Shown: piece after piece, positions 3,538 through 38,200 of the stretch
Layout of the letters: each line of letters starts with the position of its first letter
Numbering within the stretch: the stretch's first letter is position 1
Assembly (NCBI GenBank): GCA_026004395.1
Contig: BPJB01000001.1
Location: 649,226-713,225 of the forward strand
Origin: Patescibacteria group bacterium
Lineage (GTDB): Bacteria > Patescibacteriota > Microgenomatia > Levybacterales > UBA12049
Direction: 5' to 3'
DNA: 64,000 bases
Made by a program: the position numbers and the translations under genes
The notes under the pieces: model-generated
Database searches by the model: none
Told to the model about the DNA's origin: nothing
Seen by the model: the letters and a program-made list of their open reading frames with translations, nothing else

Positions 3538-3549
3538 AACTGCTATCCT

Positions 3550-4083: not shown

Positions 4084-5104
4084 TTTCTCTTAAAGCAAGA
4101 CCGACTGCGACTGTAAATCGCGGCCCTTGTTCCATCAAAATATCAGGAACTCCACTTATCGAACGTACCTTGAAGGGATTACCAATAACAGTCTCTATAC
4201 CACAATTTTTGGCAAAATACAGAGCAAGTCCAGGAAGAAGAGATGAACCACCGCTAATAATAATTTGAGATATTGGACTATCATTTTTGTATTTCTCCGT
4301 ATAATATGCAAGAGCTTTTTTAACTTCTGTAAGCATTGCCTCCAGAATAGGGGAGAGAGCAAGGCTGATTTTTCCTCCCAAGTTTTGATCATTCAGACCA
4401 TATGTTTTTTTATATTCTTCTGCTTGAGTAAGAGCAAATCCAAAATTAGAAGCAATTGCACGATCCATAGCAAGACCACCAAGCGGAATAGTATAGGTAA
4501 AAACAAGAGTATTATTCTGGATGATAGCCAAAGATGTACTCAGTGCTCCAATATTTACAATAAGTAATGCCTTATCTGATTCCTCAGGAACTAAGGAACG
4601 TATAACAGAAATAATTTCTGTTTCGATAGCATTTATTGAAAGTCCTGTCATCTCAATAATTGTTTGATAACGCCTAACAAGATTTGTAGGAGCCCCTACC
4701 AGAAGCACTTGCATTTTAGGACTTATCTCTGACATGGATCCACGCCTTAATACCTTATAGTCAAGTGTCAATGTTGATAACTGTGCTGGAATATGTTGTT
4801 CTGCCTCCCAATATATTGCTGATGATAGCTCTTTATCTGAAAGAACAGGCATATCAATTACTTTGGTAAAGACTTGATTCTCAGGTAAAGCAAGATTGAC
4901 ATTGCGTACAGTGATCTTAGAATCAACAACCAGCTGCTGTATTGCCTGCGCCATTGCCTCCTGATCAATTGCGGACTCTGAAAGCATACCTTTTGCAGGA
5001 GTAACAGTTGTCAGACATGCCTTTAGAGATGTCACTCCCTTATTCTTATCCAACCACACAATTTTCATTGATGTTGCTCCGATATCAAGTCCAAAAGTTT
5101 TCAT
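4076..5104 (-). CDS. pilM: Type IV pilus assembly ATPase-fold protein PilM
   Basis: Actin-like fold with N-terminus GLDIGATSMKIV and C-terminal IIISGGSSLLPGL. Confidence 0.85.
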   Translation of the reverse strand: MKTFGLDIGATSMKIVWLDKNKGVTSLKACLTTVTPAKGMLSESAIDQEAMAQAIQQLVVDSKITVRNVNLALPENQVFTKVIDMPVLSDKELSSAIYWEAEQHIPAQLSTLTLDYKVLRRGSMSEISPKMQVLLVGAPTNLVRRYQTIIEMTGLSINAIETEIISVIRSLVPEESDKALLIVNIGALSTSLAIIQNNTLVFTYTIPLGGLAMDRAIASNFGFALTQAEEYKKTYGLNDQNLGGKISLALSPILEAMLTEVKKALAYYTEKYKNDSPISQIIISGGSSLLPGLALYFAKNCGIETVIGNPFKVRSISGVPDILMEQGPRFTVAVGLALREND

Positions 5105-5107
5105 AAA

Positions 5108-5929
5108 TTAGGGTGAAAAAATACCATGTGGGAAAATCTCAACAGGAAGCGTAGGATACCCTTTATAGACTGTCAGCTTCCTTTCTGTATTAGACGCAAC
5201 CCCAGTTGACTCAATAATCTGTCCTTGAGCTGGAAGAGGTTGAGTGCTGCTTATCCCAAGCCGTGTGGGAGCATAAAGAGGAACTATTCTCATAAGCAAA
5301 CCATTAGTGACCGAAATAGTGTATGAATGAGTAAACTGTTTACCACCAATTATTCCTCCTGATTGAATATTCTGAGAAAAATTATTAACTGACGCTCGTG
5401 CTGAACACGGCTCAAGCATATAGTGTGTCATGGTCAAATTTTGAGGGGAGTTAATATTCCCTGAAATAACAACTATTTGTAGTGCAGACTCTGTATTGGT
5501 AGATTCATTATTTGTACATGTATCAGAAGGTGATCCCCAATAAACAGTAACTTGTGCATTCAACGGAGAAGTGTATGTGGGATAATTAGCTAGCCAAACA
5601 TCAGCACCATCGTCTTTGGGAATAAGATTATAATTATAAACAAGAAATGAACTGCTATTTTTTGCATAGGATGTTATCTTGGCATTAAAAGAAGCATTCG
5701 TTCCCACTTCATCGCTTAATGTTAAAGATTCAGCGCTTGAGTTAATTAGCCTCTCAATACCAGCCTCAGCTGCTGAAAAGGCTTTCTGTGAATTTTCCTC
5801 CTCTTCTGTTGTTCGAAGATTTACAATACTGCGGCTGACAACTGAAAGACCGATAGTTAAGGAAACTACCATTACTAAGATAATGATAAGTAGGATCTGT
5901 CCCTTCTGATAGGATGGTGAAAAATTCAT
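5108..5929 (-). CDS. PilX-N-domain minor pilin / pilus assembly protein
   Basis: N-terminus QKGQILLIIILVMVVSLTIGLSVVSRS matches the PilX_N hydrophobic segment. The C-terminal part is Ser/Thr/Asn-rich. Confidence 0.5.
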   Translation of the reverse strand: MNFSPSYQKGQILLIIILVMVVSLTIGLSVVSRSIVNLRTTEEEENSQKAFSAAEAGIERLINSSAESLTLSDEVGTNASFNAKITSYAKNSSSFLVYNYNLIPKDDGADVWLANYPTYTSPLNAQVTVYWGSPSDTCTNNESTNTESALQIVVISGNINSPQNLTMTHYMLEPCSARASVNNFSQNIQSGGIIGGKQFTHSYTISVTNGLLMRIVPLYAPTRLGISSTQPLPAQGQIIESTGVASNTERKLTVYKGYPTLPVEIFPHGIFSP

Positions 5930-5978
5930 ACTCTCAACTTATCGTAACAAGCACATTTGCTTGTGTCAACTGAAAAGA

Positions 5979-6614
5979 CTATTCTTTCAGGTTACGCATG
6001 ATTACTGTGGACTGGAAAGAAGAAGGTGTTGTCGCATCTACAACACCGCTACTATACTTTTTACTCAAGGTAAAAGAGATTGTAATTGTTGGAAAATTGT
6101 AAAGTGAATTTTGGGTACACGTAAAAGAACATGCTGTTACTACGACAGAAGAAGTATCAACAAGAGAAGCACTATTAGAGGAAATCGTACCATTGGGAAG
6201 ACTGTTACAAGAGAATGTAGTTCGTCCAGCGTCAGGATTCTCTATTATAATTGATGATGTTGTTGCTATATATCCAGTCTCGTTAAAACAAGGAGATGGA
6301 TACTCTAAAGAACGGGCATTACGTATCATTTTTGTTATTTGCGAAAGAGCATAGTTGCCATTTTGCTGGAGGATTGTGACATTTGTACTTTTATTTGAAC
6401 CGCGCAAAGATGCCAACAACACTCCAAAAACAATTCCGCTAACTGATGCTATAACAACAATTACAGCAAGAAGTTCAACAAGAGTAAAGCCTAAATTTTG
6501 CCAACGAAAAATTTTTAGTATCCAATCTTTTATAGTCAATTTCCACTGAAAATCCACTATCTTTACTTTTGAAATTTGAGATTTAAATTTTATACTTGGT
6601 AAATTTTTAATCAT
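5979..6614 (-). CDS. Type IV prepilin-like protein (minor pilin)
   Basis: Class III signal G|FTLVELLAVIVVIA with Glu at +5. The leader in the ORF track is long and the true start is unclear. Confidence 0.65.
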   Translation of the reverse strand: MIKNLPSIKFKSQISKVKIVDFQWKLTIKDWILKIFRWQNLGFTLVELLAVIVVIASVSGIVFGVLLASLRGSNKSTNVTILQQNGNYALSQITKMIRNARSLEYPSPCFNETGYIATTSSIIIENPDAGRTTFSCNSLPNGTISSNSASLVDTSSVVVTACSFTCTQNSLYNFPTITISFTLSKKYSSGVVDATTPSSFQSTVIMRNLKE

Positions 6615-7117
6615 GGTGATTTTTTGGTTGAGTAACTAGACAAGCATGTTTCAACAGTCGTTTTATGACAATAGAGATTATTCACATTTGTACAGGTATT
6701 ATCTCGCCAAGAAACAGTTACAGAAACCTTTGATTGTGTAAGAGTGGGATCATTAGTTGCTTCCTCACAAGAAGATGCATTATGTTGAAGCGTTACTTCA
6801 CGGATGTACCTGTTAGCTACGTTTAATCCACATTCAATACCTTTTGGTCCACAACTTCCTGAATCTGTTGAAAGAGAAGTACACGTATCAGCAAAACAAT
6901 ATGTGGTATTAGGTAAAGAAAAAAATGTACTATATTTATTTTCTTTCATAGTTCGAATGCTCTCTAAAGCATCCTGTGCGTATTGTGTTGCTTGCTGTTG
7001 AGAAGTACTATGAGTGGTATTTTTAAGTGCGGTAATCACTGCTAGTGTAATTGCTGAAAGAACAGCTATGCCTATTGCCAATGCAACTAAAACTTCAATT
7101 ATTGTTTCTCCCTTCAT
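6611..7117 (-). CDS. Type IV prepilin-like protein (PilV-like minor pilin)
   Basis: MKG|ETIIEVLVALAIGIAVL prepilin motif. The C-terminal domain is Cys-containing. Confidence 0.6.
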   Translation of the reverse strand: MKGETIIEVLVALAIGIAVLSAITLAVITALKNTTHSTSQQQATQYAQDALESIRTMKENKYSTFFSLPNTTYCFADTCTSLSTDSGSCGPKGIECGLNVANRYIREVTLQHNASSCEEATNDPTLTQSKVSVTVSWRDNTCTNVNNLYCHKTTVETCLSSYSTKKSP

Positions 7118-7119
7118 AA

Positions 7120-7698
7120 TTATTCAAGACTTATTGCTCCTTGTTGAGTAACAGTTACTCTTAGAGTATTACCATATCCAGTTATACCTATACTCCCAGC
7201 ACCATCTACTCCTCCAGATAAAACTTTAAAAATATATTGTGTTGATGTCGTAGTAGCTGAATCAAATGCTACGTTAGCAGGAAGTGTTTTTGTTGACAAC
7301 TTAGATGTAAGATTACCACAACGAACGTACAACTCATAAGTATTCTGAGTATTACATAGGGAGCCTGTCAATCCACAAATTCTTACCTCGTAGCCATCAA
7401 GGGTATTAGAGTTACATGCTGCAATAGATGGTTTGAGTTGCGATTGTGTACGCGACTTAGCATCCTGTAATAGAGAGATCACATCAAATGCCGCACTTTT
7501 TACAGTCTGAATTTTATTGTAAGAAACAAAAGCTGCCAAGGAAACTGTTGAGATGATGGCAATTATTACAAATACAACTAGCAACTCAAGAAGAGTAAAT
7601 CCATTTCTATTGTCAATATCGACAATTCTATAAATAAAATCAAATCGTTTCTTAATATTTTTTAATAAACTTTTATCAGTGGACAAATTTTTCTTCAT
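7120..7698 (-). CDS. Type IV prepilin-like protein (minor pilin)
   Basis: G|FTLLELLVVFVIIAII motif. Confidence 0.65.
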   Translation of the reverse strand: MKKNLSTDKSLLKNIKKRFDFIYRIVDIDNRNGFTLLELLVVFVIIAIISTVSLAAFVSYNKIQTVKSAAFDVISLLQDAKSRTQSQLKPSIAACNSNTLDGYEVRICGLTGSLCNTQNTYELYVRCGNLTSKLSTKTLPANVAFDSATTTSTQYIFKVLSGGVDGAGSIGITGYGNTLRVTVTQQGAISLE

Positions 7699-8225
7699 GG
7701 ATTATTGAGGACATAGTATTTTCCTGATATACATGATCCACTGGCTGCAGGACTTGGAGGTGTAGTAGTAGCATTTACATCATTATCATTTGCATTCTCA
7801 AGACATGCAGCAAGAGTATACGTTGAGCCATCGGAACTACTGTAATAATAGTAGTTGCCGCCATTATACGATCCAGAACCAGATCCCAATGGATCACATG
7901 GTACTTTACTCATATAAGTAACTCCATTATAAGAAAAACTCTCTGATGTAGGACATGCAGTAAGGTTTATCCTATAGGTATCCTGTCTGATAGGATAGCG
8001 ACCATTATCTGTATGAAAAAGTTGAACAGTGGCTTGCAATTGTCTAAGATCGGCTTTGCGTTGCGCATCTCGAGCTCGTTGTCTCACTCCTACAAAATTG
8101 GTCATCAAAAAAGTAGTCAGCACTCCAATTATTGCGATAACAATCAAAAGTTCGATAAGAGTAAATCCTCTTTTGCTTTTGAAGATGTAACTGATAGTTT
8201 TTATCTCTGAAAATATTTTTTTCAT
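7695..8225 (-). CDS. Type IV pilin
   Basis: KRG|FTLIELLIVIAIIGVL motif. The C-terminus is Ser/Gly/Tyr-rich and Thr/Pro-rich. Confidence 0.75.
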   Translation of the reverse strand: MKKIFSEIKTISYIFKSKRGFTLIELLIVIAIIGVLTTFLMTNFVGVRQRARDAQRKADLRQLQATVQLFHTDNGRYPIRQDTYRINLTACPTSESFSYNGVTYMSKVPCDPLGSGSGSYNGGNYYYYSSSDGSTYTLAACLENANDNDVNATTTPPSPAASGSCISGKYYVLNNP

Positions 8226-8782
8226 GGACTATAATCTGAGCTTGTTACACCATAATTACAGATAATATTCGGATCATTATTAACACTACAGGCAGTAGAT
8301 GGAATACCAAAACGTGCTGTCATATTAAGACACGGATTGCCTTGATTACACGCATCGGGATCTTTTCCCCCTCTCTCAAGACTAGCATAGAGAGCGTATG
8401 TCTGTCTATCTGGAGTTGAGTAATATACGTATCTTCTCTCACCTGTAGGATCAGCAGGAAGAATATTCATATAGGGCTGCCATGAAGATCCCCATTCTAT
8501 CGTGTTACCACCAATACGTATTTTTCTATCTGGTGATGACTCAGGATAACTGCCATAATCATGATAATAAGCTTCAAGGCTACGTTGAATTTGTGCAAGA
8601 TCTGATTTACGTCGCGCGTCATTCGCCTTAAGATATTGATTTCTAGGATCGGTAAGTGCAATTACCCCTGCGGCAAGAATACCAAAAATTGCTGCAACCA
8701 AAATAAGTTCTATAAGGGTAAATCCTTTCTTTTGTGATAAGAAAAATGAAGTAGTCATCTTTTTATAGCTTATAACTTTCAA
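8222..8782 (-). CDS. Type IV pilin
   Basis: KKG|FTLIELILVAAIFGILAAG motif. The probable start is the internal Met at 8758 (MTTSFFLSQKKG). The C-terminal domain contains Cys residues. Confidence 0.75.
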   Translation of the reverse strand: MKVISYKKMTTSFFLSQKKGFTLIELILVAAIFGILAAGVIALTDPRNQYLKANDARRKSDLAQIQRSLEAYYHDYGSYPESSPDRKIRIGGNTIEWGSSWQPYMNILPADPTGERRYVYYSTPDRQTYALYASLERGGKDPDACNQGNPCLNMTARFGIPSTACSVNNDPNIICNYGVTSSDYSP

Positions 8783-8797
8783 AAAAAAATTTCAAAA

Positions 8798-9295
8798 CTA
8801 CTTTGAACCATCAGAAAGCCTTATAGTTGAAAGATAAGAACAATCAATATTTCCTAAAGCAATACATGCCCACTGATTAGTAAAATCTAAAGGTTTACAG
8901 GATGGAAGAGTATTCAAAATACACGCTGATGCTGGCTGAGCTTTTGATAGTTTTGTAAACAAGATGCTCCATTGAGGACAGGATCCGTTTGTCTGGTATA
9001 TAAAACATTCTGTGGGATCAGAAGTACATGCAGAGCTCTGAGGCACTTTTATCATGTAAGTTGTTACTCCCTTTTTCCATTCAGATCCGAATGGTATAGT
9101 AGTAGGATAACAATTATTATCATTGTAATAAGTATCTAGTGCTGCTTTTATTTGCTGAAGACTATTTTTTTCTTCTTCATCACCAACCTTTGCCAAGTTT
9201 TTATATGGATTTAAAATAACAAATGTTAAAAGCAGCATGCTGCTTAAAATTACTATTGATACCAAAAGTTCAATAAGTGTCAAACCCTTCATCAT
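8798..9295 (-). CDS. Type IV pilin-like protein; paralog of the next gene
   Basis: MMKG|LTLIELLVSIVIL motif. The start is set at the internal Met pair at 9295 to avoid overlap with the upstream gene. Shares the YYNDxxCYPxTIPFGSEW block with the 9300-10073 protein. Confidence 0.65.
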   Translation of the reverse strand: MMKGLTLIELLVSIVILSSMLLLTFVILNPYKNLAKVGDEEEKNSLQQIKAALDTYYNDNNCYPTTIPFGSEWKKGVTTYMIKVPQSSACTSDPTECFIYQTNGSCPQWSILFTKLSKAQPASACILNTLPSCKPLDFTNQWACIALGNIDCSYLSTIRLSDGSK

Positions 9296-9299
9296 ATTT

Positions 9300-10073
9300 T
9301 TAACATGCACCATTACATGTAGGTGAACAATATGTGCCTGTACCTTGAGGGACAACATTACATCGCTGGATCGGATCACCGCGACATGCATAATTTCGCT
9401 GTTCAATCGGACAATCTTCAGGAGTCTTTTCAGGATTTACCTGTTGATTACCAGTTGGAGAAGGCGAAGAACCAGGAGGCACAGGAAGAGAAGAAAACAC
9501 CGGATTTGCAACAACAACAGAACAATCAATATTGCCTGATAAAGCACAAGACCATGAGGTGTCATAATTGGGAGGAATACAACTTGAGGAAAAAGACTTG
9601 AGAGGACATGAGACATTTTGTTCAAGATCATTTTTAACGTAGATAATATTCCACTGAGGGCAAGGATCGTTTTGATCTACCTGATAAAGATAGCAATTAG
9701 CAGGATTAGATTCACAGTCTGGAGCTTGAGGAACTTTGGACATATAAACTGTTGATCCCACACGCCATTCAGAACCAAAAGGTATAGTTTTTGGATAACA
9801 ACCAAAATCATTGTAATAGGCATCTAAAGAATTCTTAAGCTCGTTTAAATCATGGGCTCGCGTCGCATCTTTGGCTTTTTTAATCTGTGAAATTGGATCG
9901 ATCAAAATAACAACAAATACTAGTAAAATAGAAAGGATAGCAATCTCTATTATCATTTCCAGCAATGATAAACCTTTAACCGGGTATAAATATTGAGCAA
10001 AATTCTGATAGAAAGGATGTTTATCAACTGCAAAAAGTGGCACTCGTTCTGTTGTATTATCTTTCATGTTCAA
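9300..10073 (-). CDS. Type IV pilin-like protein with a Pro/Ser linker and a Cys-rich C-terminal module
   Basis: KG|LSLLEMIIEIAILSIL prepilin-like signal. A PVPPGSSPSPTG linker is followed by a 10-Cys C-terminal tail. Confidence 0.6.
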   Translation of the reverse strand: MNMKDNTTERVPLFAVDKHPFYQNFAQYLYPVKGLSLLEMIIEIAILSILLVFVVILIDPISQIKKAKDATRAHDLNELKNSLDAYYNDFGCYPKTIPFGSEWRVGSTVYMSKVPQAPDCESNPANCYLYQVDQNDPCPQWNIIYVKNDLEQNVSCPLKSFSSSCIPPNYDTSWSCALSGNIDCSVVVANPVFSSLPVPPGSSPSPTGNQQVNPEKTPEDCPIEQRNYACRGDPIQRCNVVPQGTGTYCSPTCNGAC

Positions 10074-10837
10074 AATAGGAAAAAATACTGCTTTGCAATT
10101 GACTCAAATATATTACCCCACAACATGACAAGTATTGTTCCAAAAACCAAAAATGGACCAAAAGGGATTGTATCTCCATGTAATTTCTTCTTTTTTAGTA
10201 AAACTAGTATGAGAGAAAGTATTGCACCTGTCAAGAAAGCAATATATAAACCTATGATAATTCCAGGAAAACCAAGAATAAATCCCATAACAAAAGAATA
10301 TAAAACATCTCCAAAACCCATACCTCTTCCTCTTGTCAAAAGGAAAACCGCCAAGAAAAATCCTCCTGCTGCAATTGCACTAACAACATGCGAAAAAAAT
10401 GAACTTTGATTGAGGATCAAAATCCCTATTCCTGAAATAAATGCCAAAAAAATACTTTGTACAGGAATAATGCCATAACGCCAATCTGTGACAAATATTA
10501 CAAAAAGTGATGCTAGCAAAAGAGTATAAAAAGATAATAAAAGGATAGAGGCATTTTTTAATGTTAAAAATATTATTGCAAAAATTATTCCCATTAATAC
10601 CTCGCTTACTGGATACCAAAATGACAGATTAGCATGACATGTTCTACATTTTCCTTGCAAAAAAATAAAAGAGAAAAGGGGGAAAAGCTCATACCACTTA
10701 AGAATACGCTGACAATTATCACAATGAGATCTTCCACTTATAAATGATTGATTTTTTGCAGATCTGTCTGCAACAACAAGAAAGAAACTTCCGAAAAATA
10801 ATCCTGCAAGAAAAGCAAATACCACTGACAGATCCAT
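10070..10837 (-). CDS. pilD: Prepilin leader peptidase / N-methyltransferase (A24 family)
   Basis: N-terminal CxxC...CxxC zinc motif (CDNCQRI...CRTC) and a multi-TM body containing GFGDVLY. Confidence 0.85.
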   Translation of the reverse strand: MDLSVVFAFLAGLFFGSFFLVVADRSAKNQSFISGRSHCDNCQRILKWYELFPLFSFIFLQGKCRTCHANLSFWYPVSEVLMGIIFAIIFLTLKNASILLLSFYTLLLASLFVIFVTDWRYGIIPVQSIFLAFISGIGILILNQSSFFSHVVSAIAAGGFFLAVFLLTRGRGMGFGDVLYSFVMGFILGFPGIIIGLYIAFLTGAILSLILVLLKKKKLHGDTIPFGPFLVFGTILVMLWGNIFESIAKQYFFLF

Positions 10838-10915: not shown

Positions 10916-11956
10916 ATGGCTCTACCAAAAGTTGCAATTGTTGTACTTAATTACAATGGTTGGCGTGAAACAGTCCATTGTCTTAAGACTCTTCTATTGA
11001 CTGATTATCCTCAGTTCACAATTCATGTTCTTGATAATGGTTCACAACGTAATGAGCTTACTATATTAAAACGTCGTTTTAACGATCCAAGAATTGTTTT
11101 TCATCGTATTATAAAAAATATTGGTTATTCGGGAGGCAATAACTATCTTTTCAATAAAATTAATGAGAAATATATAGCACTTGTAAATAATGATGTAGAG
11201 GTACCAAGTAATTGGCTCAAACCACTTGTTAATGTACTTGAGAAAGATAAAACAATTGCAATCGTACAGCCAAAGATACTTTGGTTTAAGAATAAACGTT
11301 ATTTTGATTATTCAGGTGCTTGTGGGGGTTATATAGATATTTTTGGATATCCTTTTACTCGTGGACGAATTTTCAATACTATAGAAGAAGATAGGGGACA
11401 GTATGATAAGGAAGTAGATCTTTTTTGGGCGAGTGGTGCAACAATGCTTATGAGAATGAGTGCGCTACGAAAAGTTGGAGGATTTGATGAAAGATTCTTT
11501 AATTATATGGAAGAGATAGATCTTTGTTTTAGACTTCATCGAGCAGGATATAGGGTAGTCTTCACACCCAAATCCTATGTTTATCATAAAGTAGCAGCAA
11601 CTCTTTCACGAAAGCCTATGAAAAAACGTTTTTGGGAACACCGAAACAACATACTTATGATTATAAAAAATTATCCTTTAGGAAAACTCCTTTTGATTCT
11701 CCCTATAAGAATTTTATTGGAGTATCTTAGCTTTATATATTATCTAGGATCACAACAATTTGATTATGCACTGGCAGTTATCTACAGCCAAATTTCTCTT
11801 TTATACATGGGGCCGCTTTTTTTCATTCAAAGACTAAGTAAATCTGTTAAAGAAACCTCAAAAATGAAAAAAATTATCTACTCAAAGAGCATTGTAATCG
11901 ATTATTATTTATTTAAAAAACGCAACTATCATTCTCTTGAATGGAGAGAAAACTAA
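10916..11956 (+). CDS. Glycosyltransferase family 2
   Basis: VAIVVLNYNG...LDNGS...DxD-type GT-A motifs. Confidence 0.8.
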   Translation: MALPKVAIVVLNYNGWRETVHCLKTLLLTDYPQFTIHVLDNGSQRNELTILKRRFNDPRIVFHRIIKNIGYSGGNNYLFNKINEKYIALVNNDVEVPSNWLKPLVNVLEKDKTIAIVQPKILWFKNKRYFDYSGACGGYIDIFGYPFTRGRIFNTIEEDRGQYDKEVDLFWASGATMLMRMSALRKVGGFDERFFNYMEEIDLCFRLHRAGYRVVFTPKSYVYHKVAATLSRKPMKKRFWEHRNNILMIIKNYPLGKLLLILPIRILLEYLSFIYYLGSQQFDYALAVIYSQISLLYMGPLFFIQRLSKSVKETSKMKKIIYSKSIVIDYYLFKKRNYHSLEWREN

Positions 11957-12933
11957 TGCGAATTATTTATCTTCTATTTAATACAAAAAAAAATGGTGGT
12001 AATAAAGTAATTCTTGACCAAGTATCTCAATTAATTTCATTTGGACATAATGTTGAAGTTATCACTATTTTAGGAAAAAGTTTTCATTGGTACAATCAAA
12101 AAGTTATTACCAAAAAAATTTCCATAAAAAATTTTTTTACTAGATATGATTATCTCATCTGTACTTTCTGGCCAACAGCATATATTGGACTATTTTTACC
12201 AGCTAAAAAAAAATCTTATTTTATCCAAGCTCTTGAAGAAAACTTCTCCAATAACTATATTTATAAGTTTCTTGTTCGTTTAACTTATAAACTTCCTTAT
12301 AAATTTATTGTAACTACACAGTTTTTAAAAAAATCACTATTAACATATGGAATACCTAAAAAAAATATTTCCATCATCAATAATATTACTATCGATCCTC
12401 ATTTCTTCCAAAAAAAACATAGGCGAATAAACAAAAGGAGAATCAAAATATTAACAGTTATGTCTTACTATTTACCCTATAAAGGTCCTGATATTTATCT
12501 ACAGATTCTTAAAATGTTGAAACAAAATTACCCAATTTATACTACACTTGTCAGTATGGAAAGATATTCGCTGTCTCCGCTTGTTGATAAGTTTATTTCT
12601 AACCCTTCTGCGCAACAATTAGCTAGACTCTATTTATCACACGATATTTTACTTGTTACTAGTAGATCAGAAGGATTTTTCTTACCTGGAATTGAAGCAA
12701 TGGCTGCTGGATGCCTAGTAATTAGTACTAATAGTGGTGGAATTTTAACCTATGCCAAACACAACTACAATGCTTATATTTTTAAAGATATAGATCAAAT
12801 AATAAATATATTTGACGAACTACTACATAACCATCAACTAGAAACCAGGATACGCAACAATGCCTATAGAACAGCTGAAAAATATCGCACAATATCTTCT
12901 TCAGACGTACTAAAAAGGACTTTTTCTTTATGA
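11941..12933 (+). CDS. Glycosyltransferase family 1/4 (GT-B)
   Basis: C-terminal EGFFLPGIEAMAAGCLVISTNSGG motif, which is an EX7E-type motif. Confidence 0.7.
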   Translation: MERKLMRIIYLLFNTKKNGGNKVILDQVSQLISFGHNVEVITILGKSFHWYNQKVITKKISIKNFFTRYDYLICTFWPTAYIGLFLPAKKKSYFIQALEENFSNNYIYKFLVRLTYKLPYKFIVTTQFLKKSLLTYGIPKKNISIINNITIDPHFFQKKHRRINKRRIKILTVMSYYLPYKGPDIYLQILKMLKQNYPIYTTLVSMERYSLSPLVDKFISNPSAQQLARLYLSHDILLVTSRSEGFFLPGIEAMAAGCLVISTNSGGILTYAKHNYNAYIFKDIDQIINIFDELLHNHQLETRIRNNAYRTAEKYRTISSSDVLKRTFSL

Positions 12934-13742
12934 ACAGTTCATATTTCCAAAGAATCAAACAAAAAATGCAATACCTTATTCGTTATGCATATATTTCTCC
13001 TCAAAAAAATATCGTTACTTTATATAAAACATGGTTCTATGTAATTATGGATCTTTTCCCCTGGAAAAAGGGTAGAGTAGTAACTCACATCCTGAATAAC
13101 GGGACACGATTCCTAATCCGACTACATTCATTCGATATGATTATTCTTAATGAAATATATATTCTTAATCTTTACTTACCTTTCACTTCTTTAATTAAAA
13201 AAGGAGATGTAATAGATATTGGAGCACATATTGGTATTTTTTCAGTATTCGCTGTTCATACATTTAAACCTCATCGTGTTCTTGCCTTTGAACCATACAC
13301 TCCCAATTTTTCATTATTGAAAAAAAATATAGAGTATAATAAGCTCACGTCAATCATCTTACCCATCAAATTAGCAGTAGGGGAAAGAAATGGCAAAGGC
13401 AATCTTTTTATTGATGAAAAAAACACAGGGGGTCATTCACTACATACTAATCTCCTCTCAAAATCAGAACATAAAGAAATTATCTCCATCACCACTCTTG
13501 ATAATATCTTCACAACCCATTCAATTAAGAATTGTTCAATACTTAAACTAGATTGTGAAGGTGCAGAATACGATATTCTCAAAGCTGCATCAGACGAAAC
13601 ACTTAAAAAAATACAATTAATTATTCTCGAATATCATCCCAACTATTCACTTGAAAAACTGCAATCTTTTCTAAAAAACAAAGGATTTATTATTTCACCC
13701 GGAAGATCGGGTTTTCCTATTCTATTTGCTATTAAAAGATAA
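12930..13742 (+). CDS. FkbM-family SAM-dependent methyltransferase
   Basis: DIGAHIGIFSVFA glycine-rich SAM motif and FkbM-like architecture. Confidence 0.65.
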   Translation: MNSSYFQRIKQKMQYLIRYAYISPQKNIVTLYKTWFYVIMDLFPWKKGRVVTHILNNGTRFLIRLHSFDMIILNEIYILNLYLPFTSLIKKGDVIDIGAHIGIFSVFAVHTFKPHRVLAFEPYTPNFSLLKKNIEYNKLTSIILPIKLAVGERNGKGNLFIDEKNTGGHSLHTNLLSKSEHKEIISITTLDNIFTTHSIKNCSILKLDCEGAEYDILKAASDETLKKIQLIILEYHPNYSLEKLQSFLKNKGFIISPGRSGFPILFAIKR

Positions 13743-13756
13743 GTAAGAAATAATTT

Positions 13757-15766
13757 TTACTGCACAAGCGCTCTTACATCTTCCTTAAGTGGTTTACCAA
13801 ATTTTTGTTCATATACTCTTGCGATATCTTCAGCATGTTTTTCATTTTTAACACAAGAAGTATATGTTACATACAACAAAACATAACCCTGCGCATATGC
13901 AGGATCGCCTGCAACGACAGTTTGGAATGCTGAGAGAGCTTTTGCACAATCTCTCTTTGCCAAAAAATACGTTCCTTTACCAACAAGTGATGTTTTCTCC
14001 TCAGGATGTATTGCAAGTGCTTTATCATAAAATAAATTAGCAAGTTCCATGTCATTGTATTTCAAAAGAATATATTTCCCCGAAAAACCGTAAGCTACAG
14101 CATACAGAACAGGAAACTCTGCTATAGTAAGATTGCGCTCTGCAAGTGTAAGATCACTCTTTTTCTTATAGTTAAGATTTGATAGAAGTCGCATTTGTTG
14201 CTTGGCATATCTCTCTTTTTCCATCTCCTGTGTTGGTGACACAAGTTGATAAACAAGTCCGTATGGCCTCCAATGGTAACCCTTTTTTTTAAACTCTGAA
14301 CTGAGAATCTCAGTTAATGAAAAAACCTCTCTCTTTTTATGCATGGATATCAGTGCAGGAACAAGAGGATTTTTCTCCTTTGGATATTCTTTTTTTGCGT
14401 GTTTTATTTCGCTTTCAAGAAGTTGTGAAGTATTTAATCGTGCCAAATTAATAATATCTACATCCTCACGAATATGAAATGCTGTCTGCACAAATTTAGT
14501 ATTAAAAAAAATACTATCTCCATACAAAAAAAGAACACTTTTCTGAGGAAGATTGCTAATTATATCTCTCCCCAAATTTTCACCTATCATAATCCCTCGT
14601 AAATTTGTTTTGGGAAAATTGTTAATAAAAAGCGTTAATGGTATTATGCCAAAAAGTGTTATAATCGCCAAATTGTAAGATTTTATACGACTTTTTTCTG
14701 GAAGACGTGACAAGATAAATGCGTTGATTATTGTAATGAATTCTAAAAACCCAATTGGAAATAAAAGAAGTAACAATATAGCAGAATTTTGATAAAATCT
14801 CTCAATTACACCATGTTGAAAACTTGAATACATTGGTGTACTGACGTACATTACAAAAAATGGACCAAAAAGAAAAATCGCCAATAAAAAACTAAAAAAC
14901 AGTAAATAGTGTTTGCGCAAAATAAGAGAAATCAGACCAAGTAAGACAAAAAAAATGACAGGCGGAGTAAGCTCTACAAAAATATCAAATACATATTGTT
15001 TAAGAGATAAAAAACGATTTATTGTATCTATTGCTCCAGGCATATACCCATAATCTAAACGCAAAATATATCTTATAAAAGACTCAATGGAGTTAACTTT
15101 AGTCCACAGTGTCTCTCCACCAAAAAAAGAGGCAAATGGAATATACAAATACGGTAGAAGTCCAATCAAAGCAAACAAAACACCTCTTAAAATTACTTTA
15201 AATTGTCTTAATAATGAAAGATTTTTATAAAAAACTAGCAAAGCAAGACTTGGAAAAAGAAGAACAATAACTAAATGATGGGCGAGAGTAAGACCACCAA
15301 CAAAACAAAGAAGATAAAAAAGTCTAGTTGTTTTATACTTTTGATAAAGAAGTGTGATATACAACAAAAGTAAAAGAAAAAAACTATGCATAGCAAAAAC
15401 TTCAGATAGTTCAGCATATAGCCAAAAAGTTGAATATGTACCCAAAATTAATGCGGAAATAAAACCAATCAAAGTATTTTTAGTTAAAAAATAAGATATT
15501 TTATAAAATACTACGACAGCAAGTGCTGAAGAGACAGCCGATATCAAGCCCACTTTCCATGTAAATGATTGGGAGAGGGGAAAAAAAGAAAACAAAATTC
15601 CCAAAAGAGTATATAAAGGATAGCCAGGAGGATGTGGATAGGTAAAATTATAAATAGAATACAAAAAATCTCCTACATCACCACCAAAAACATGATCAGA
15701 AAGATTTAGTGTATAAACAAAAATAAAAAATAAAAAAAGAATTAAAGATGGTTTTATAAAACGCAT
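13757..15766 (-). CDS. DUF2723 (TMEM260/TMTC-like protein O-mannosyltransferase family) membrane protein with C-terminal TPR repeats
   Basis: N-terminal DHVFGGDVGDF...HPPGYPLYTLLG block, about 11 TM helices, and C-terminal TPR-like repeats. Sits 10 nt downstream of the pilin gene on the same strand. Confidence 0.55.
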   Translation of the reverse strand: MRFIKPSLILFLFFIFVYTLNLSDHVFGGDVGDFLYSIYNFTYPHPPGYPLYTLLGILFSFFPLSQSFTWKVGLISAVSSALAVVVFYKISYFLTKNTLIGFISALILGTYSTFWLYAELSEVFAMHSFFLLLLLYITLLYQKYKTTRLFYLLCFVGGLTLAHHLVIVLLFPSLALLVFYKNLSLLRQFKVILRGVLFALIGLLPYLYIPFASFFGGETLWTKVNSIESFIRYILRLDYGYMPGAIDTINRFLSLKQYVFDIFVELTPPVIFFVLLGLISLILRKHYLLFFSFLLAIFLFGPFFVMYVSTPMYSSFQHGVIERFYQNSAILLLLLFPIGFLEFITIINAFILSRLPEKSRIKSYNLAIITLFGIIPLTLFINNFPKTNLRGIMIGENLGRDIISNLPQKSVLFLYGDSIFFNTKFVQTAFHIREDVDIINLARLNTSQLLESEIKHAKKEYPKEKNPLVPALISMHKKREVFSLTEILSSEFKKKGYHWRPYGLVYQLVSPTQEMEKERYAKQQMRLLSNLNYKKKSDLTLAERNLTIAEFPVLYAVAYGFSGKYILLKYNDMELANLFYDKALAIHPEEKTSLVGKGTYFLAKRDCAKALSAFQTVVAGDPAYAQGYVLLYVTYTSCVKNEKHAEDIARVYEQKFGKPLKEDVRALVQ

Positions 15767-15776
15767 GTATTATTTA

Positions 15777-16331
15777 TTATAATACAGCGCACCAGTAGCA
15801 GTCAGCAGAGCCTCCTTTTGATTTGCACGTTGCTGATGTGGGAGTACCGTCAATACCGTAAATTGTATTGGCATCTCTCTGTTGTGCTTTTGATTGAGGT
15901 TTGTAGCAGGCTGTTACAGTATTTGTTGATCCTGTGAAATAAATCTCTTTGATAATATTTGTTGCTGTATTATAACCAGTTTTAAGCTCTCCATCACTTA
16001 TCAAAGCCTGAACACATGTAGTTCCACCATCAACAGAAGAGTTCAAATTAACCGAAACTGCATTATAATCATTACCTGAGCAACCCAAATAACCTCCCTC
16101 ATTAGTACTAGCCCATGGCATACCATTATGTGTAGTAAAGTAGCGAAGATTTGCATTGATAAACTCAACTGTACTATTTTTTACATTTGAATCTTGGGCT
16201 TTTTTCAGTTGCTCAAAAGGATCAATTGTGGCAATGAGAGCTGATGCAAGAATACCTAAAATTCCAATAACAACTAAAAGCTCTATAAGTGTGAATCCTT
16301 TTGAAAGTGATTGAATTCGGGCAGTTATCAT
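15777..16331 (-). CDS. pilA: Type IV pilin (major pilin candidate)
   Basis: Short leader MITARIQSLSKG|FTLIELLVVIGILGILA. It has its own AT-rich upstream region. Confidence 0.8.
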   Translation of the reverse strand: MITARIQSLSKGFTLIELLVVIGILGILASALIATIDPFEQLKKAQDSNVKNSTVEFINANLRYFTTHNGMPWASTNEGGYLGCSGNDYNAVSVNLNSSVDGGTTCVQALISDGELKTGYNTATNIIKEIYFTGSTNTVTACYKPQSKAQQRDANTIYGIDGTPTSATCKSKGGSADCYWCAVL

Positions 16332-16516
16332 ATTTGCTTAAAATTTATCTCTACATTAATTATTGACATGTATTTTAAAAGTTGTCAAGTAGTATTTTGG
16401 TCTAATTCTATTTTCTCTATCATTTTAGCTTAATCTAAATTACTAATAATTTACTTCTTTGTTCGCTGTCTATATAAAAATTTAATAAATTTGATATAAA
16501 ATTATTTAATTGAAAT
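16332..16516 (-). promoter_or_regulatory. AT-rich promoter region upstream of the pilA-like gene
   Basis: 185-nt intergenic stretch. The minus strand reads TTGACA, a 17-nt spacer, then CAATAAT (plus 16360-16388). Confidence 0.3.
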
Positions 16517-17914
16517 TTAATTCTTGCTTATAGGCAGAGAAAAAGTAACAGATGTCCCTCTACCGATACCATCTGAGTGTATCCAGATTTCTCCTCCATG
16601 CATCTGAACAATCGATTTACAGATATAAAGCCCCAGTCCTGTTCCTTGTGTTGCTGATTTGTTGACTGTATAAGAACCATGTAGAAAACCGAATTTTTGA
16701 AATAACCTTGGCATTTCCTCCTGTGGAATACCTGATCCAGTGTCCGAAATTACCGTATCAACTCTTTGATCTTTTGGAGAGTAGGAGAGAGTTATTGTAA
16801 TTTTTCCACCAACAGGTGTAAATTTAATTGCATTATCTAGCAGATTATTAAGTACCTCCTTTATTTTCTCAGGATCAGCAACCACATTGGGAATTTCTTG
16901 AGGAAAATTACAAGAAAGAATAAGACCTGCTTGTTCGATGCGCGGTTTCAGCTCATCAACCACTTCTGAGATGAGATTGGGAAGAGCTGTTGACTGAAGT
17001 GCGAGAGAGATTCTACCTGACTCAATCCGAGAAATATTGAGCATATCGCCAACAAGTTTTATCAGTCTATCAACTGATGTGTAAGCTCTATTCAAATAAT
17101 ACACCTGCTTCTCAGTCAAAGGACCGCCTCTGCCAGCAAGCGCCATCCACAAATACGACTTAATCGCTGTCATGGGTGTACGCAACTCATGTGAGGCTAA
17201 AGATACAAACTCGTCTTTTAATACATCTAACTCCTGAAGCTTCTGATTACTTTTTTGTAACTCTTGATAAAGAAGTGCATGATCCATCACAATTCCTACA
17301 ACACCAACCAGACGACCAATTAAATCCATTTGATACTCTGTAAGTTCTTTTTCTGTTGCCTGATGACCAACTACAATTGCTCCCAGAGTTTCCTCTCGAA
17401 CCCTCAAAGGAAAAATCAGATAGGTTTTTATTTGACTAAGCTGCTGAAGTTTATTTGCCTCCTCATCAGATAAATCATGAAGTGTCACCTCTTTTAGATT
17501 GTTGGTTGCTTTGTACCTGCCTTCGGTTACTACCTGCACAATTGCATTTTCTTTTTTAGCAAGAGAAATGGCTTCACCCGGTTGAGCATAATTTTTAAGT
17601 CTCTCTCTGCTTGCCTCAATATTGGAACTCTCTGCTATACCAAATCTCACAAGCATCTTTTTTTGTTTATCAATAACTAAAATACTCGCAAAAAGAAAAT
17701 CAGCTTCTGTAACTAAAATTCTGGCAACTTGTGTTGCGATCTCAATTGGATCATTGACAGAGCTAAAAATAATATCGTCTATTCTTCTAAAAAGAGTAAG
17801 TGTCTTATTGCGTTCTGCCAGCTCTATATTTTTTCTGAGCATTTCCTGATTAATATGTTCAAGATCTTTTGTTATATCGCTTTGTTGAGATTGAATTTGT
17901 GTAACATCTGACAT
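16517..17914 (-). CDS. Sensor histidine kinase (GAF-HisKA-HATPase), cytoplasmic
   Basis: H-box SHELRTPMTAIKSY and G-boxes GTGLGLYICKSIVQMHGG. No TM segment. Confidence 0.85.
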   Translation of the reverse strand: MSDVTQIQSQQSDITKDLEHINQEMLRKNIELAERNKTLTLFRRIDDIIFSSVNDPIEIATQVARILVTEADFLFASILVIDKQKKMLVRFGIAESSNIEASRERLKNYAQPGEAISLAKKENAIVQVVTEGRYKATNNLKEVTLHDLSDEEANKLQQLSQIKTYLIFPLRVREETLGAIVVGHQATEKELTEYQMDLIGRLVGVVGIVMDHALLYQELQKSNQKLQELDVLKDEFVSLASHELRTPMTAIKSYLWMALAGRGGPLTEKQVYYLNRAYTSVDRLIKLVGDMLNISRIESGRISLALQSTALPNLISEVVDELKPRIEQAGLILSCNFPQEIPNVVADPEKIKEVLNNLLDNAIKFTPVGGKITITLSYSPKDQRVDTVISDTGSGIPQEEMPRLFQKFGFLHGSYTVNKSATQGTGLGLYICKSIVQMHGGEIWIHSDGIGRGTSVTFSLPISKN

Positions 17915-17920
17915 ATTTCT

Positions 17921-19402
17921 TCAAAGAATTGTATGTTCTAATTCTTTTACCTCCTGATGTTTGTTTTGTGAGTTGGCAATGAATTCCCTATCTGAGTCTG
18001 CAAATTTTTTCAGTGTAAAGGAGAAAGTCGCCCCTTTGCCTATCCCATCAGAAAAAGCACTTATCTTACCTCCATGCATCTGAACAATTGATTTACAAAT
18101 ATAAAGCCCCAGTCCTGTTCCAACCGTTGCGTTTTTGTTTACTGTATAAGATCCTGGAAGAATACCAAACTTTTGGAAAAGCTTCGGCATATCCTCCTGT
18201 GGTATTCCAATACCATTATCAGATATACTAACAGTAACAAATTTCTGATCCGACGTAAAGGTAATAACAACTGATCCACCTCTAGGAGTAAACTTTAAAG
18301 AATTACCAATAAGATTGATCAAAACTTCTTTGATTTTGGTAGCGTCTGCAAGAACTGGAGGGATATTGATTCCGTGAGAAATAGTTATAGATATACCAAG
18401 TTCTTCTGCTCTTGGTAATACTTCTTCATAAACCTCGTGTGTAAGTTTTTCTATATCTACTTGTTCTAAATTGAGAGCAATCCTTCCTGACTCGATACGT
18501 GAGATATTCAGCATATCGTTTACTAATTTAATTAACCTATCTGAAGCATTATATGCTCGTTCCAAATAATAATGTTGCTTCTTGGTCAAAGAACCGCCTC
18601 TGCCAGCAAGCGCCATCCACAAATACGACTTAATCGCTGTCATGGGTGTACGCAACTCATGTGAGGCTAATGATACAAACTCGTCTTTTAGTTGATCTAG
18701 CTTCTGTAATTGATCATTTGCTTCCTTTAACTGTTTAGTTGCCGAGGTGAGATTACGATAAAGCAGTGCATGCTGAAGAGCGATAGATGAACCATCAACA
18801 AACATCTGAAAAATAGTATATTCATAACTAGTGATTTCAGATTCTTTTTTAGGAGTACTGGCAACAAACACTCCAATCGGTTCATTTTCCATATAAAGTG
18901 GATAAATAAGAGTAGTACGAGTCTTCATGATAGACTGAATTTTGAAAGCTTCTTCTGCTGACAGAACAGGGCAGAGGACATCATAAACTTGAGTCGTTGT
19001 ATAGTGTTTTTTTTCTCTAAGAGAACGCGCCATAAGATTATTGGGATCATTGATACTTATCTCAATCTGTGTAAAAGGTACTCGAAGTGCTTGGATTGCT
19101 TTTTCTGCTTCTTCAGTATGAGATGCAGCTATACGACGTAAAACTTTGCGATCTTTATCGTAAATGGCTAAAACACCAGTAGCAAATTTGAGCTCGCTAG
19201 GAATATAATCAGCAATCTTTTGTGCTACTGCCTCAAAATTGAGATCACCAAGAATTATTTTATTGATTTTTTGAGCTGCAAGAATAGCTTTCTTCTGATA
19301 GTTTAGCCTATTATGAGTAAATCTTACGAAAACAAAAAGAAATGCAAGTGTCAAAAAGATAACCAACCCATTTACCAAAAAAAAGGCAGTTTCAATACTC
19401 AT
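17921..19402 (-). CDS. Sensor histidine kinase (TM-GAF-HisKA-HATPase); paralog of the preceding gene
   Basis: One N-terminal TM helix and the same H-, N- and G-box blocks as its neighbour. Confidence 0.85.
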   Translation of the reverse strand: MSIETAFFLVNGLVIFLTLAFLFVFVRFTHNRLNYQKKAILAAQKINKIILGDLNFEAVAQKIADYIPSELKFATGVLAIYDKDRKVLRRIAASHTEEAEKAIQALRVPFTQIEISINDPNNLMARSLREKKHYTTTQVYDVLCPVLSAEEAFKIQSIMKTRTTLIYPLYMENEPIGVFVASTPKKESEITSYEYTIFQMFVDGSSIALQHALLYRNLTSATKQLKEANDQLQKLDQLKDEFVSLASHELRTPMTAIKSYLWMALAGRGGSLTKKQHYYLERAYNASDRLIKLVNDMLNISRIESGRIALNLEQVDIEKLTHEVYEEVLPRAEELGISITISHGINIPPVLADATKIKEVLINLIGNSLKFTPRGGSVVITFTSDQKFVTVSISDNGIGIPQEDMPKLFQKFGILPGSYTVNKNATVGTGLGLYICKSIVQMHGGKISAFSDGIGKGATFSFTLKKFADSDREFIANSQNKHQEVKELEHTIL

Positions 19403-21441: not shown

Positions 21442-21864
21442 ATGCAATCAAATGAAGATAATACAATTCAGGGTAGGACAGTACAGGGGACATCCGCAAA
21501 CCGTAAAATTCTTATTATTGATGATGATCTCTATATCCGTGATCTCTATGAAGAAGTATTAAGAGATGATGGTTTTAATGTTGAAACAGCTGTAGATGGT
21601 GAAGAGGGACTGATGAAACTCCAAAAAGGAGGATATGATCTTGTACTTCTTGATGTAATGATGCCCAAACGAGATGGATTAGGAGTGTTAACAGAGCTTG
21701 CACTTCATCCACCTCAAACACCAAACGGACCAATCATCGTTCTAACCAATCTTGGACATGATCCTATTATTAAGGAAGCTATGAGCAAAGGAGCAGCATC
21801 GTATCTAAATAAAGCTGATATGACACCTGATCAGCTATTGGCGAATATCAAGAAGTTTCTTTAG
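21442..21864 (+). CDS. Single-domain response regulator (CheY-like receiver)
   Basis: KILIIDDD...DLVLLDVMMPKRDG...K receiver motifs with no output domain. Confidence 0.8.
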   Translation: MQSNEDNTIQGRTVQGTSANRKILIIDDDLYIRDLYEEVLRDDGFNVETAVDGEEGLMKLQKGGYDLVLLDVMMPKRDGLGVLTELALHPPQTPNGPIIVLTNLGHDPIIKEAMSKGAASYLNKADMTPDQLLANIKKFL

Positions 21865-38193: not shown

Positions 38194-38200
38194 TCAAATT

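Follow-up and report, generated by a model that had tools for sequence, protein, structure and literature searches.

We analyzed a 64,000-nucleotide stretch of the genome of a Patescibacteria group bacterium (Microgenomatia; GenBank assembly GCA_026004395.1, contig BPJB01000001.1, positions 649,226 to 713,225), referred to here as the window; coordinates below are positions within it. In the window, a type IV pilin gene (15777-16331, minus strand) is followed 10 nucleotides (nt) downstream by the gene for a glycosyltransferase of the C fold class (GT-C; 13757-15766, minus strand) that all sequence tests applied place in the TMEM260/DUF2723 family. We propose that the pilin is the substrate of this membrane enzyme and is O-glycosylated from a polyprenyl-phosphate sugar, and we put the probability of this reading at about 65%. 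We do not claim mannose as the sugar, because the PgfS/ArnC-like synthase encoded in the window has a different GT-C as its partner and may be specific for some other sugar. The original prediction, made from the letters of this DNA, had suggested the same enzyme-substrate relationship from the tight spacing of the two genes. It now finds support in the recurrent linkage of the genes in relatives, in the optional nature of the enzyme's slot, and in an alternative enzyme with Wzy_C and tetratricopeptide repeat (TPR) domains that occurs beside the same pilin family.

A TMEM260-like enzyme and a type IV pilin encoded in tandem

The product of the downstream gene is 669 amino acids (aa) long and identical to KatS3mg089_0657. 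It matched PF11028 (DUF2723) at aa 30-183, over profile positions 1-175 of 179 (E = 1e-26; 94.2 bits against a cutoff of 24.2), and the N-terminal HPPGYPLY block by which the family had originally been recognized lies at aa 45-52. All 120 homologs among the matches listed carried PF11028, bar one partial sequence. Homology to a characterized GT-C enzyme was also strong: phmmer aligned aa 8-458 with residues 30-482 of human TMEM260 (PDB 9rql; E = 2.7e-28), and a profile of 35 homologs (25-85% identity) aligned its positions 11-530 with residues 31-567 of the same protein (E = 3.2e-76). The match to PMT_2 was below threshold (22.5 versus 26.1 bits), and neither MIR nor Wzy_C (PF04932) matched. 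A second DUF2723 gene was sought in the window, and none was found.

Human TMEM260 is a protein O-mannosyltransferase for which cryo-electron microscopy structures exist (PDB 9rql, 9rqm, and 9rqn; PMC10214176; bioRxiv 10.64898/2026.03.17.711096). Its residues D52, H67, Y267, and R355 contact the mannose of dolichyl-phosphate mannose (Dol-P-Man), R264 binds the phosphate, and the catalytic base, which contacts the peptide Thr, is D441 of a Rossmann-like "palm" on the luminal side; TPR "fingers" grip the extended acceptor peptide (10.64898/2026.03.17.711096). The D52A, H67A, R264A, Y267A, and D441A variants are inactive; six of the seven highlighted residues are essential by mutagenesis, E144 being a structural mention only (10.64898/2026.03.17.711096). 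In the pairwise alignment to 9rql, D52, H67, E144, R264, Y267, R355, and D441 corresponded to the identical residues D30, H45, E122, R236, Y239, R323, and D417 of the window protein. All seven were invariant or at least 90% conserved among the 35 homologs (H45 and D417 invariant, D30 at least 90% conserved).

In the AlphaFold2 (AF2) model of the enzyme (predicted local distance difference test [pLDDT] score of 90.9; predicted template modeling score of 0.90), a transmembrane (TM) core that extends to about aa 387 is followed by an alpha/beta domain with five strands and then by helices resembling TPRs. A Foldseek search against the PDB returned GT-C enzymes (STT3/PglB, ArnT, DPY19, ALG9/12, and PMT), so that the model bears out the fold expected of this family. 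The first extracytoplasmic loop (GGDVGD...HPPGYP, aa 28-50; 15617-15685, minus strand) carries the predicted donor-binding residues D30 and H45. The Rossmann-like palm (aa 394-529; 14180-14587, minus strand) has strands at 411-414, 437-440, 481-483, 498-502, and 505-509, and D417 (codon 14516-14518), the counterpart of the catalytic base, sits just past the first of these, at the start of helix 417-429. The C-terminal helical repeats (aa 551-668; 13763-14116, minus strand) are modeled as seven paired helices and are the proposed acceptor-binding fingers. That they are TPRs, as originally claimed, is borne out by the family profile, which matched TPR proteins at positions 558-639, and by the modeled helices, but not at the level of the single sequence, for which no Pfam TPR model passed; TIGR02917 gave a weak match at aa 568-646 (E = 0.0015). 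Judging from these sequence and model data, we conclude that the 669-aa protein is a catalytically competent TMEM260-family GT-C.

The window protein thus shares with human TMEM260 the PF11028 domain, the seven key residues, and the order of GT-C core, Rossmann-like domain, and TPRs, with homology spanning the TM core and the palm. It differs in being bacterial, in its length (669 versus 707 aa), in its TPR region (about seven helices versus five), and in the peptide-contact residues beside the catalytic base (RGDLP versus YGDSI). As acceptor we propose a type IV pilin, where TMEM260 modifies IPT domains, and a sugar carried on bacterial polyprenyl-phosphate would take the place of Dol-P-Man as donor.

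The upstream gene encodes a 184-aa type IV prepilin. Its leader, MITARIQSLSKG, precedes the mature N terminus FTLIELLVVIG, with Glu at position +5, and profile searches matched PF07963 (N_methyl; E = 1.5e-7) and TIGR02532. The short basic leader ending in Gly, the hydrophobic N-terminal helix, and E+5 are those of a class III signal peptide. The cognate prepilin peptidase PilD and the assembly genes PilM/N/O and PilB/T/C are all within the window, and 815 homologs of the pilin were found at E values of 1e-10 or lower. The AF2 model of the pilin, built with database homologs, has a lollipop fold (pLDDT score of 89.2). Its fold search gave no significant match (E of ~0.2; the best, weak ones were gonococcal PilE and TcpA), and for this reason no pilin subclass can be assigned. 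The pilin is plausibly the major, fiber-forming subunit, as indirect signs suggest: a strong promoter-like site precedes its gene, the gene opens a conserved block, and the protein shows weak full-length similarity to Myxococcus PilA (NF041775; 1.9e-7). Two other pilins of the operon, with T2SSG domains, are alternative candidates for this role.

The cysteines of the pilin were a further feature of its family. C142, C169, C178, and C181 are conserved family-wide, with the C-x-x-C pair 2 to 3 residues from the C-terminal end, and C84 and C106 are additionally present in most close homologs. Type IVa pilins typically have one disulfide; the larger set here could make two or three, or else bind a metal.

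The coordinates and sequence of the pilin gene, its leader, the gap, and the 669-aa gene on the same strand were confirmed as first described. The pilin ends in TAA, and the 10-nt gap (taaataatac; 15767-15776, minus strand), which opens with a second in-frame TAA, leads directly to the ATG of the GT-C open reading frame (ORF). The gap leaves no space for a terminator hairpin and contains no Shine-Dalgarno-like sequence. Upstream of the pilin lies a promoter-like site (TTGACA-18 nt-AATAAT; 16359-16388, minus strand) that agrees with the consensus at 11 of 12 positions and was the top match of a 3.2-kb promoter scan. The GC content of the window is low (~33%), and with 17 matches found against 14.1 expected in AT-rich DNA, this site is to be read as a consensus match only.

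The GT-C gene and an FkbM gene on the plus strand are convergent, with 14 nt between their stop codons (13742-13757). The only terminator-like hairpins, at 13697-13712 (plus strand) and 13885-13906 (minus strand), lie within the 3' ends of the coding regions of these two genes. Directly upstream of the pilin promoter region are two tandem paralogous GAF-HisKA-HATPase histidine kinase genes (16517-19402, minus strand), and a stand-alone response-regulator receiver is encoded near them (21442-21864, plus strand). Kinase genes also precede the pilin gene in the closest relatives (L001 and L081) and are absent from more distant loci. The kinases may regulate the pilin.

Linkage of the two genes in relatives

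We examined 80 species-level genome loci encoding GT-C relatives, using a motif scan and tblastn with the window's neighbor proteins. In 37 of the 80 loci, the gene immediately 5' of the GT-C gene, in the same orientation, encoded an orthologous prepilin of 160 to 190 aa. The gaps between the two genes ranged from -22 to +104 nt in these genome loci and from -32 to about +104 nt across linked relatives overall, and GT-C identity among the pilin-linked loci went down to ~25%. The linkage is far beyond chance. Loci from outside the candidate phyla radiation (CPR), among them those of Latescibacterota, Acidobacteriota, Verrucomicrobiota, Bdellovibrionota, Endomicrobia, Myxococcota, and others, had no pilin or pilD gene within 6 kb.

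The usual gene order in the relatives was pilin, GT-C, an insert of 0, ~1.1, or ~2.2 kb, pilD, five or six minor pilins, orf273, and pilM; the GT-C gene is therefore embedded in a type IV pilus operon. The inserts were all of the glycosylation type (YfhO-type GT-Cs, a PMT_2-like protein, GT2 enzymes, or S-adenosylmethionine-dependent methyltransferases), and some relatives had nothing there, with pilD directly after GT-C in L003, L006, L010, L012, and L019. The genes upstream of the pilin varied between loci, and thus the conserved block begins at the pilin. In three rearranged Woesebacteria loci (L015, L016, and L020) and in L018, a pilin gene is convergent with the GT-C gene and lies just 3' of it. 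The adjacency is no isolated case, and the original prediction understated it: as a modular accessory to the pilin, the arrangement is conserved throughout a large lineage of the CPR.

These results bear on two earlier claims. Of the two outcomes that were to refute the original prediction, a lack of DUF2723 or GT-C homology and an unlinked pair with independent promoters, neither was observed: the homology is strong, the pair is kept across a deep lineage, and in the window no terminator separates the genes and one strong promoter-like site precedes the pilin. The description of the pilin as standing alone holds for the window, where the GT-C gene and a three-gene sugar cassette set it apart from the other pilus genes, but not for the relatives, in which it is the first gene of a contiguous operon.

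The reverse test was a metagenome scan seeded with the pilin family, in which 68 loci were testable, i.e., had at least 500 nt of sequence 3' of the pilin. A GT-C gene was present in 29 of these, directly 3' of the pilin in 27 and after an insertion of ~0.8 kb in 2. About 25 loci ran from the pilin straight to pilD, and in these neither tblastn nor the family hidden Markov model detected a GT-C. Ten loci (L139, L140, L143, L144, L146 to L149, L152, and L158) had a second small pilin gene followed by a convergent gene for a membrane protein of ~700 aa with Wzy_C (1e-17 to 1e-21) and TPR domains and then by a PilM-like gene; six of them were confirmed by Pfam, and the other four were assigned by sequence similarity only. 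The remaining 4 loci had other arrangements. On the pilin tree, the DUF2723 gene was gained or lost at least seven times. Because it is present or absent at that one slot, DUF2723 is an optional accessory gene between the major pilin gene and pilD.

On sequence grounds, the Wzy_C+TPR protein is a candidate TfpO/PglL-like pilin O-oligosaccharyltransferase (O-OTase) of the CPR. No comparative evidence speaks more strongly for the pilin as the target than this: in other lineages, its family is paired with an unrelated enzyme that has TPRs and comes from a family known to glycosylate pilins. In L134 and L136, a small GIY-YIG-like ORF (...YVGITNNLVRRIWEH) lies between the pilin and DUF2723 genes, ~0.5 to 0.86 kb past the pilin; it looks like a mobile-element insertion into the tight junction.

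Glycosyltransferases encoded next to pilins are already known as such; what is new here is a type built on TMEM260/DUF2723. A parallel in architecture is TfpW of Pseudomonas aeruginosa group IV, a 646-aa GT-C that has 11 TM helices, carries its TPR domain in the periplasm, is encoded directly 3' of pilA, and is needed for pilin O-arabinosylation, the transfer of D-arabinofuranose (D-Araf) from polyprenyl-phosphate onto Ser/Thr of its cognate pilin (10.1101/2020.04.19.049825). The window enzyme is likewise a membrane GT-C with a TPR domain whose gene is directly 3' of a pilin gene. Membership in the TfpW family was considered but is not supported: neither the window protein nor any member of its own family (0/35) has the DDX (periplasmic loop 1) or YX6PFX7P (loop 4) motif, and the window protein lacks even a DD dipeptide and matches neither YX6PFX7P nor YX6PX5P. 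No D-Araf pathway gene (DprE1/DprE2 or DPPR synthase) was present among the Pfam-annotated ORFs at 2.1 to 47.7 kb of the window. We therefore treat the enzyme as an apparent analogue of TfpW, set apart from that family by the two published motifs.

TfpO/PilO and PglL, of the Wzy_C family, are the established pilin O-oligosaccharyltransferases, and tfpO is directly 3' of pilA (10.1101/2020.04.19.049825); a further report describes O-OTase genes as adjoining their targets (PMC3643930). TfpW and TfpO are thus experimental precedents for a glycosyltransferase that is encoded beside pilA and modifies the pilin made from it. The proposed activity resembles theirs in being pilin-directed membrane glycosylation by an enzyme whose gene adjoins the pilin gene. 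It differs in that the window enzyme has no Wzy_C domain. The donors differ as well: TfpO/PglL use oligosaccharides already assembled on undecaprenyl-pyrophosphate, and TMEM260-type enzymes use single sugars attached to polyprenyl-monophosphate. Like PMT (GT39), TMTC (GT105), and Streptococcus mutans Pgf, the enzyme would be a GT-C using polyprenyl-phosphate mannose or hexose for O-glycosylation of a surface protein. TMTCs also have TPR domains, and the window encodes a PgfS-like donor synthase. In contrast to PMT, PMT_2 is below its cutoff, MIR domains are absent, and PMT structures were distant fold matches only.

In the literature that we searched, the term DUF2723 appeared only in the TMEM260 discovery paper, which notes "distant homologs in bacteria" (PMC10214176), and no paper mentioned TMEM260 and pilin together. 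The main study of CPR pili predicted pilin glycosylation by a sequence tool only, assigned no enzyme to it, and termed glycosylation processes unexplored.

Candidate acceptor site and competing explanations

Comparing pilins with and without a linked GT-C, the most discriminating columns were D153 and N155 of a D-x-N-T-x-[Y/F] motif (D153-A-N155-T156-I-Y158 in the window; 15858-15875, minus strand). T156 (codon 15864-15866) is a candidate acceptor, or else the motif may be a recognition element. D-x-N-[T/S] was found in 42 of 57 GT-C-linked pilins versus 2 of 23 pilD-direct pilins (P = 1e-7 [by Fisher's exact test]) and, within the closest subclade, in 15/20 versus 1/8 (P = 0.004). In the AF2 model, the motif lies in a loop of the C-terminal region bounded by C142, C169, and C178-x-x-C181. 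In type IV pilins, this Cys-bounded region is usually exposed at the surface. We propose T156, with low confidence, as the leading acceptor candidate; the pilin peptide of interest for modified forms contains DANTIYGIDGTPTSATCK.

Two other residues were considered as acceptors. N-glycosylation at N155 is unlikely, in spite of the discriminating power of that column, since the +2 position is never Ser or Thr and the enzyme's chemistry fits O transfer. S147, in a P-x-S-K motif, is nondiscriminating, being conserved in pilins with and without a GT-C.

The proposed course of events is as follows. The pilin and GT-C genes would be cotranscribed from the promoter upstream of the pilin, and the GT-C would be translated far less than the pilin because the 10-nt gap has no ribosome-binding site. 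The prepilin would enter the cytoplasmic membrane via its N-terminal helix, with its globular domain outside, while the TM core of the GT-C would bind a polyprenyl-phosphate hexose through D30, H45, R236, Y239, and R323. A PgfS/ArnC/GtrB-like GT2 polyprenyl-phosphate sugar synthase (27046-27966, minus strand; NF047588 PgfS, 2e-66; PRK10714 ArnC, 2e-50) is, from these matches, a possible supplier of the lipid-linked donor. The fingers and palm would then grip a segment of the pilin's C-terminal region, and D417 would deprotonate a Ser/Thr hydroxyl (T156 being the best candidate) to give an O-linked sugar. Glycosylation would precede processing by PilD and pilus assembly. By analogy with TfpO and TfpW, the likely role is an altered pilus surface that serves phage evasion, recognition of hosts or partners, or pilin stability. 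The analysis itself shows the enzyme's family, its conserved residues, its fold, and an operon-like gene linkage that is conserved yet optional; that the pilin is the acceptor, at which site, from what donor, and in what sequence the steps occur is inferred.

Several observations weigh against the pilin as the substrate or against its motif as the site. The glycan on the Microgenomates pilin is itself predicted, from family, fold, and gene linkage, and other pilins or surface proteins could be real or additional targets. Of five phylogenetically independent pairs, four had the motif only in the GT-C-positive member, none showed the reverse, and one was a tie (P = 0.06 in this underpowered test), so that significance was lost, and after these paired contrasts we down-weighted the P value of 1e-7 and regard the tracking of GT-C presence by the motif as suggestive only. 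The motif is missing from 15 of the 57 GT-C-linked pilins, and it is also present in 9 of 10 Wzy_C-linked ones. In a further difference from the human system, nothing in the pilin resembles the TMEM260 sequon (P-x5-P-x3-G-P-x2-[GA]-G-G-x2-[TS]). As for the donor, the PgfS-like synthase is encoded 11 kb away and is partnered with a different GT-C (27963-29720), and the GT2, GT4, and FkbM enzymes encoded next to the GT-C are of the cytoplasmic type, a poor natural fit with a transferase of single sugars from polyprenyl-monophosphate. A weak promoter-like match at 15805-15776 (CTGACT-18-TATAAT) could permit independent transcription of the GT-C gene; this site, in the 3' end of the pilin gene, was set aside, as the scan yields such sites at chance level.

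Of the competing explanations, the one that survives best is a general protein O-glycosyltransferase, which would act on several surface proteins (minor pilins, S-layer, or adhesins), with the major pilin as one target or a lesser one, as with Neisseria PglL. The six to seven further pilin-like proteins of the operon have the same membrane-anchored topology, PglL-type enzymes are broad spectrum, and two GT-C-linked sublineages lack D-x-N-T; the family overall is not pilin specific, as its non-CPR members have no pilin neighbor. Against these points, the GT-C is always beside one orthologous pilin and never beside the minor-pilin block, and its presence or absence switches at this single slot. 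Human TMEM260, moreover, is strictly domain specific, with a long acceptor segment read by TPR and palm (10.64898/2026.03.17.711096). We consider such a general enzyme unlikely.

We give still less credence to a nonprotein acceptor (a cell wall polymer, a lipoteichoic acid-like glycolipid, or a lipid), with the enzyme's place in the operon reflecting coregulated envelope remodeling, as for ArnT or YfhO. Many bacterial GT-Cs do modify lipids or polymers, and ArnT was among the top fold matches. YfhO-type GT-Cs often occupy the adjoining slot, and characterized enzymes of that type modify teichoic acids. The window also has a large envelope-glycan region with four more membrane proteins of the PMT_2, PTPS_related, or Wzy_C type. 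However, the closest characterized relative by far is a protein O-mannosyltransferase, and the acceptor-side base D441, which touches the peptide Thr, is invariant as D417. The TPR domain is typical of GT-Cs with protein acceptors (TMTC, TMEM260, and TfpW), and the Wzy_C+TPR alternative beside the same pilin family suggests pilin-directed chemistry.

It is improbable that the gene order is simply inherited, the GT-C being a passenger fixed early in Microgenomates beside the pilus operon with no functional interaction. A passenger would fit the small size and synteny of CPR genomes, the origin of most linked loci in a single superphylum, and the lack of significance in the phylogeny-corrected motif test. 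Yet the pair is conserved where the genes upstream of the pilin vary, at least seven gains or losses fall at exactly this slot, adjacency is retained in the rearranged Woesebacteria loci, the gaps are operon-like, and in other lineages this pilin family has as its partner a glycosylation enzyme that also bears TPRs but is unrelated. A noncatalytic pilin chaperone or assembly factor on a retained GT-C scaffold, comparable to TfpY/TfpZ, is very hard to credit, for while some accessory proteins aid pilin assembly without modifying the pilin (PMC11841053), the seven key TMEM260 residues (six of them mutationally essential) are kept down to 25% identity, which is expected only under selection for catalysis.

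Glycosylation of the pilin by the adjacent GT-C accordingly remains our preferred reading. A stricter form of it, in which the Microgenomates enzymes are dedicated pilin O-glycosyltransferases that read the C-terminal D-x-N-T-x-[Y/F] motif and occupy a modular slot (this enzyme, Wzy_C+TPR, or empty), is tentative and less likely than not. If it were true, the substrate-specific O-mannosylation by metazoan TMEM260 would trace to a bacterial family that includes substrate-dedicated pilin modifiers, and glycosylated pili would be a variable surface trait in the interactions of CPR bacteria with hosts and phages.

The pilin is the first candidate substrate for bacterial TMEM260-like enzymes, and a readily testable one. 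The enzyme is also a candidate for pilin glycosylation in CPR/Patescibacteria, whose type IV pili are central to the attachment of these episymbionts to their hosts. The pattern of GT-C, Wzy_C+TPR, or nothing amounts to a natural experiment on the swapping of pilin glycosylation systems, parallel to the Pseudomonas pilin groups. As a compact bacterial homolog with all key TMEM260 residues, the protein could be a tractable stand-in for the human enzyme and its disease (SHDRA syndrome) or find use in glycoengineering.

Neighboring pilus and sugar genes

Between the GT-C gene and pilD lies the sugar cassette (10916-13742, plus strand), which encodes a GT2 (10916-11956), a GT4 (11941-12933), and the FkbM methyltransferase (12930-13742) whose gene is convergent with that of the GT-C. 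PilD (10070-10837, minus strand) matched A24_N_bact (2.6e-27) and Peptidase_A24 (7e-12). The remainder of the pilus operon (2827-10073, minus strand) holds six ORFs with prepilin motifs and one Tt1218-like pilin ORF (5979-10073), orf273, PilM (4076-5104), and a PilN/PilO-like gene (2827-4083). PilC (40399-41598), a PilT-like ATPase (41610-42698), and PilB (42685-44556) are encoded farther away, also on the minus strand, and with them the pilus machinery is complete.

If the first TTG is taken as the start of each, two of the pilin ORFs (8798-9406 and 9300-10073, minus strand) share 107 nt. Their prepilin motifs (MMKG|LTLIELL and VKG|LSLLEM) are 30 to 40 residues into the ORFs, and the true starts are probably internal, the overlap being an artifact of ORF calling.

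The gene for the PgfS/ArnC-like synthase overlaps by 4 nt that of the second GT-C (585 aa; 27963-29720, minus strand), which has PTPS_related, PMT_2, and YfhO matches. The two form a classic pair of donor synthase and GT-C inside a glycan region at ~22.9 to 39.4 kb. This region also encodes GT2 and GT4 enzymes, a DegT aminotransferase, an epimerase, a Wzx-like flippase, two more PMT_2-type proteins (34177-35658 and 36589-38193), and a Wzy_C protein (38150-39397). Directly 3' of pilC/pilT/pilB, the segment 39381-40213 (minus strand) carries the gene for a 236-aa Glucodextran_B/bacterial Ig-like protein and a tRNA-Thr(CGU) gene. The Pseudomonas pilin-accessory cassette likewise adjoins a tRNA-Thr gene, a likeness that may be coincidence.

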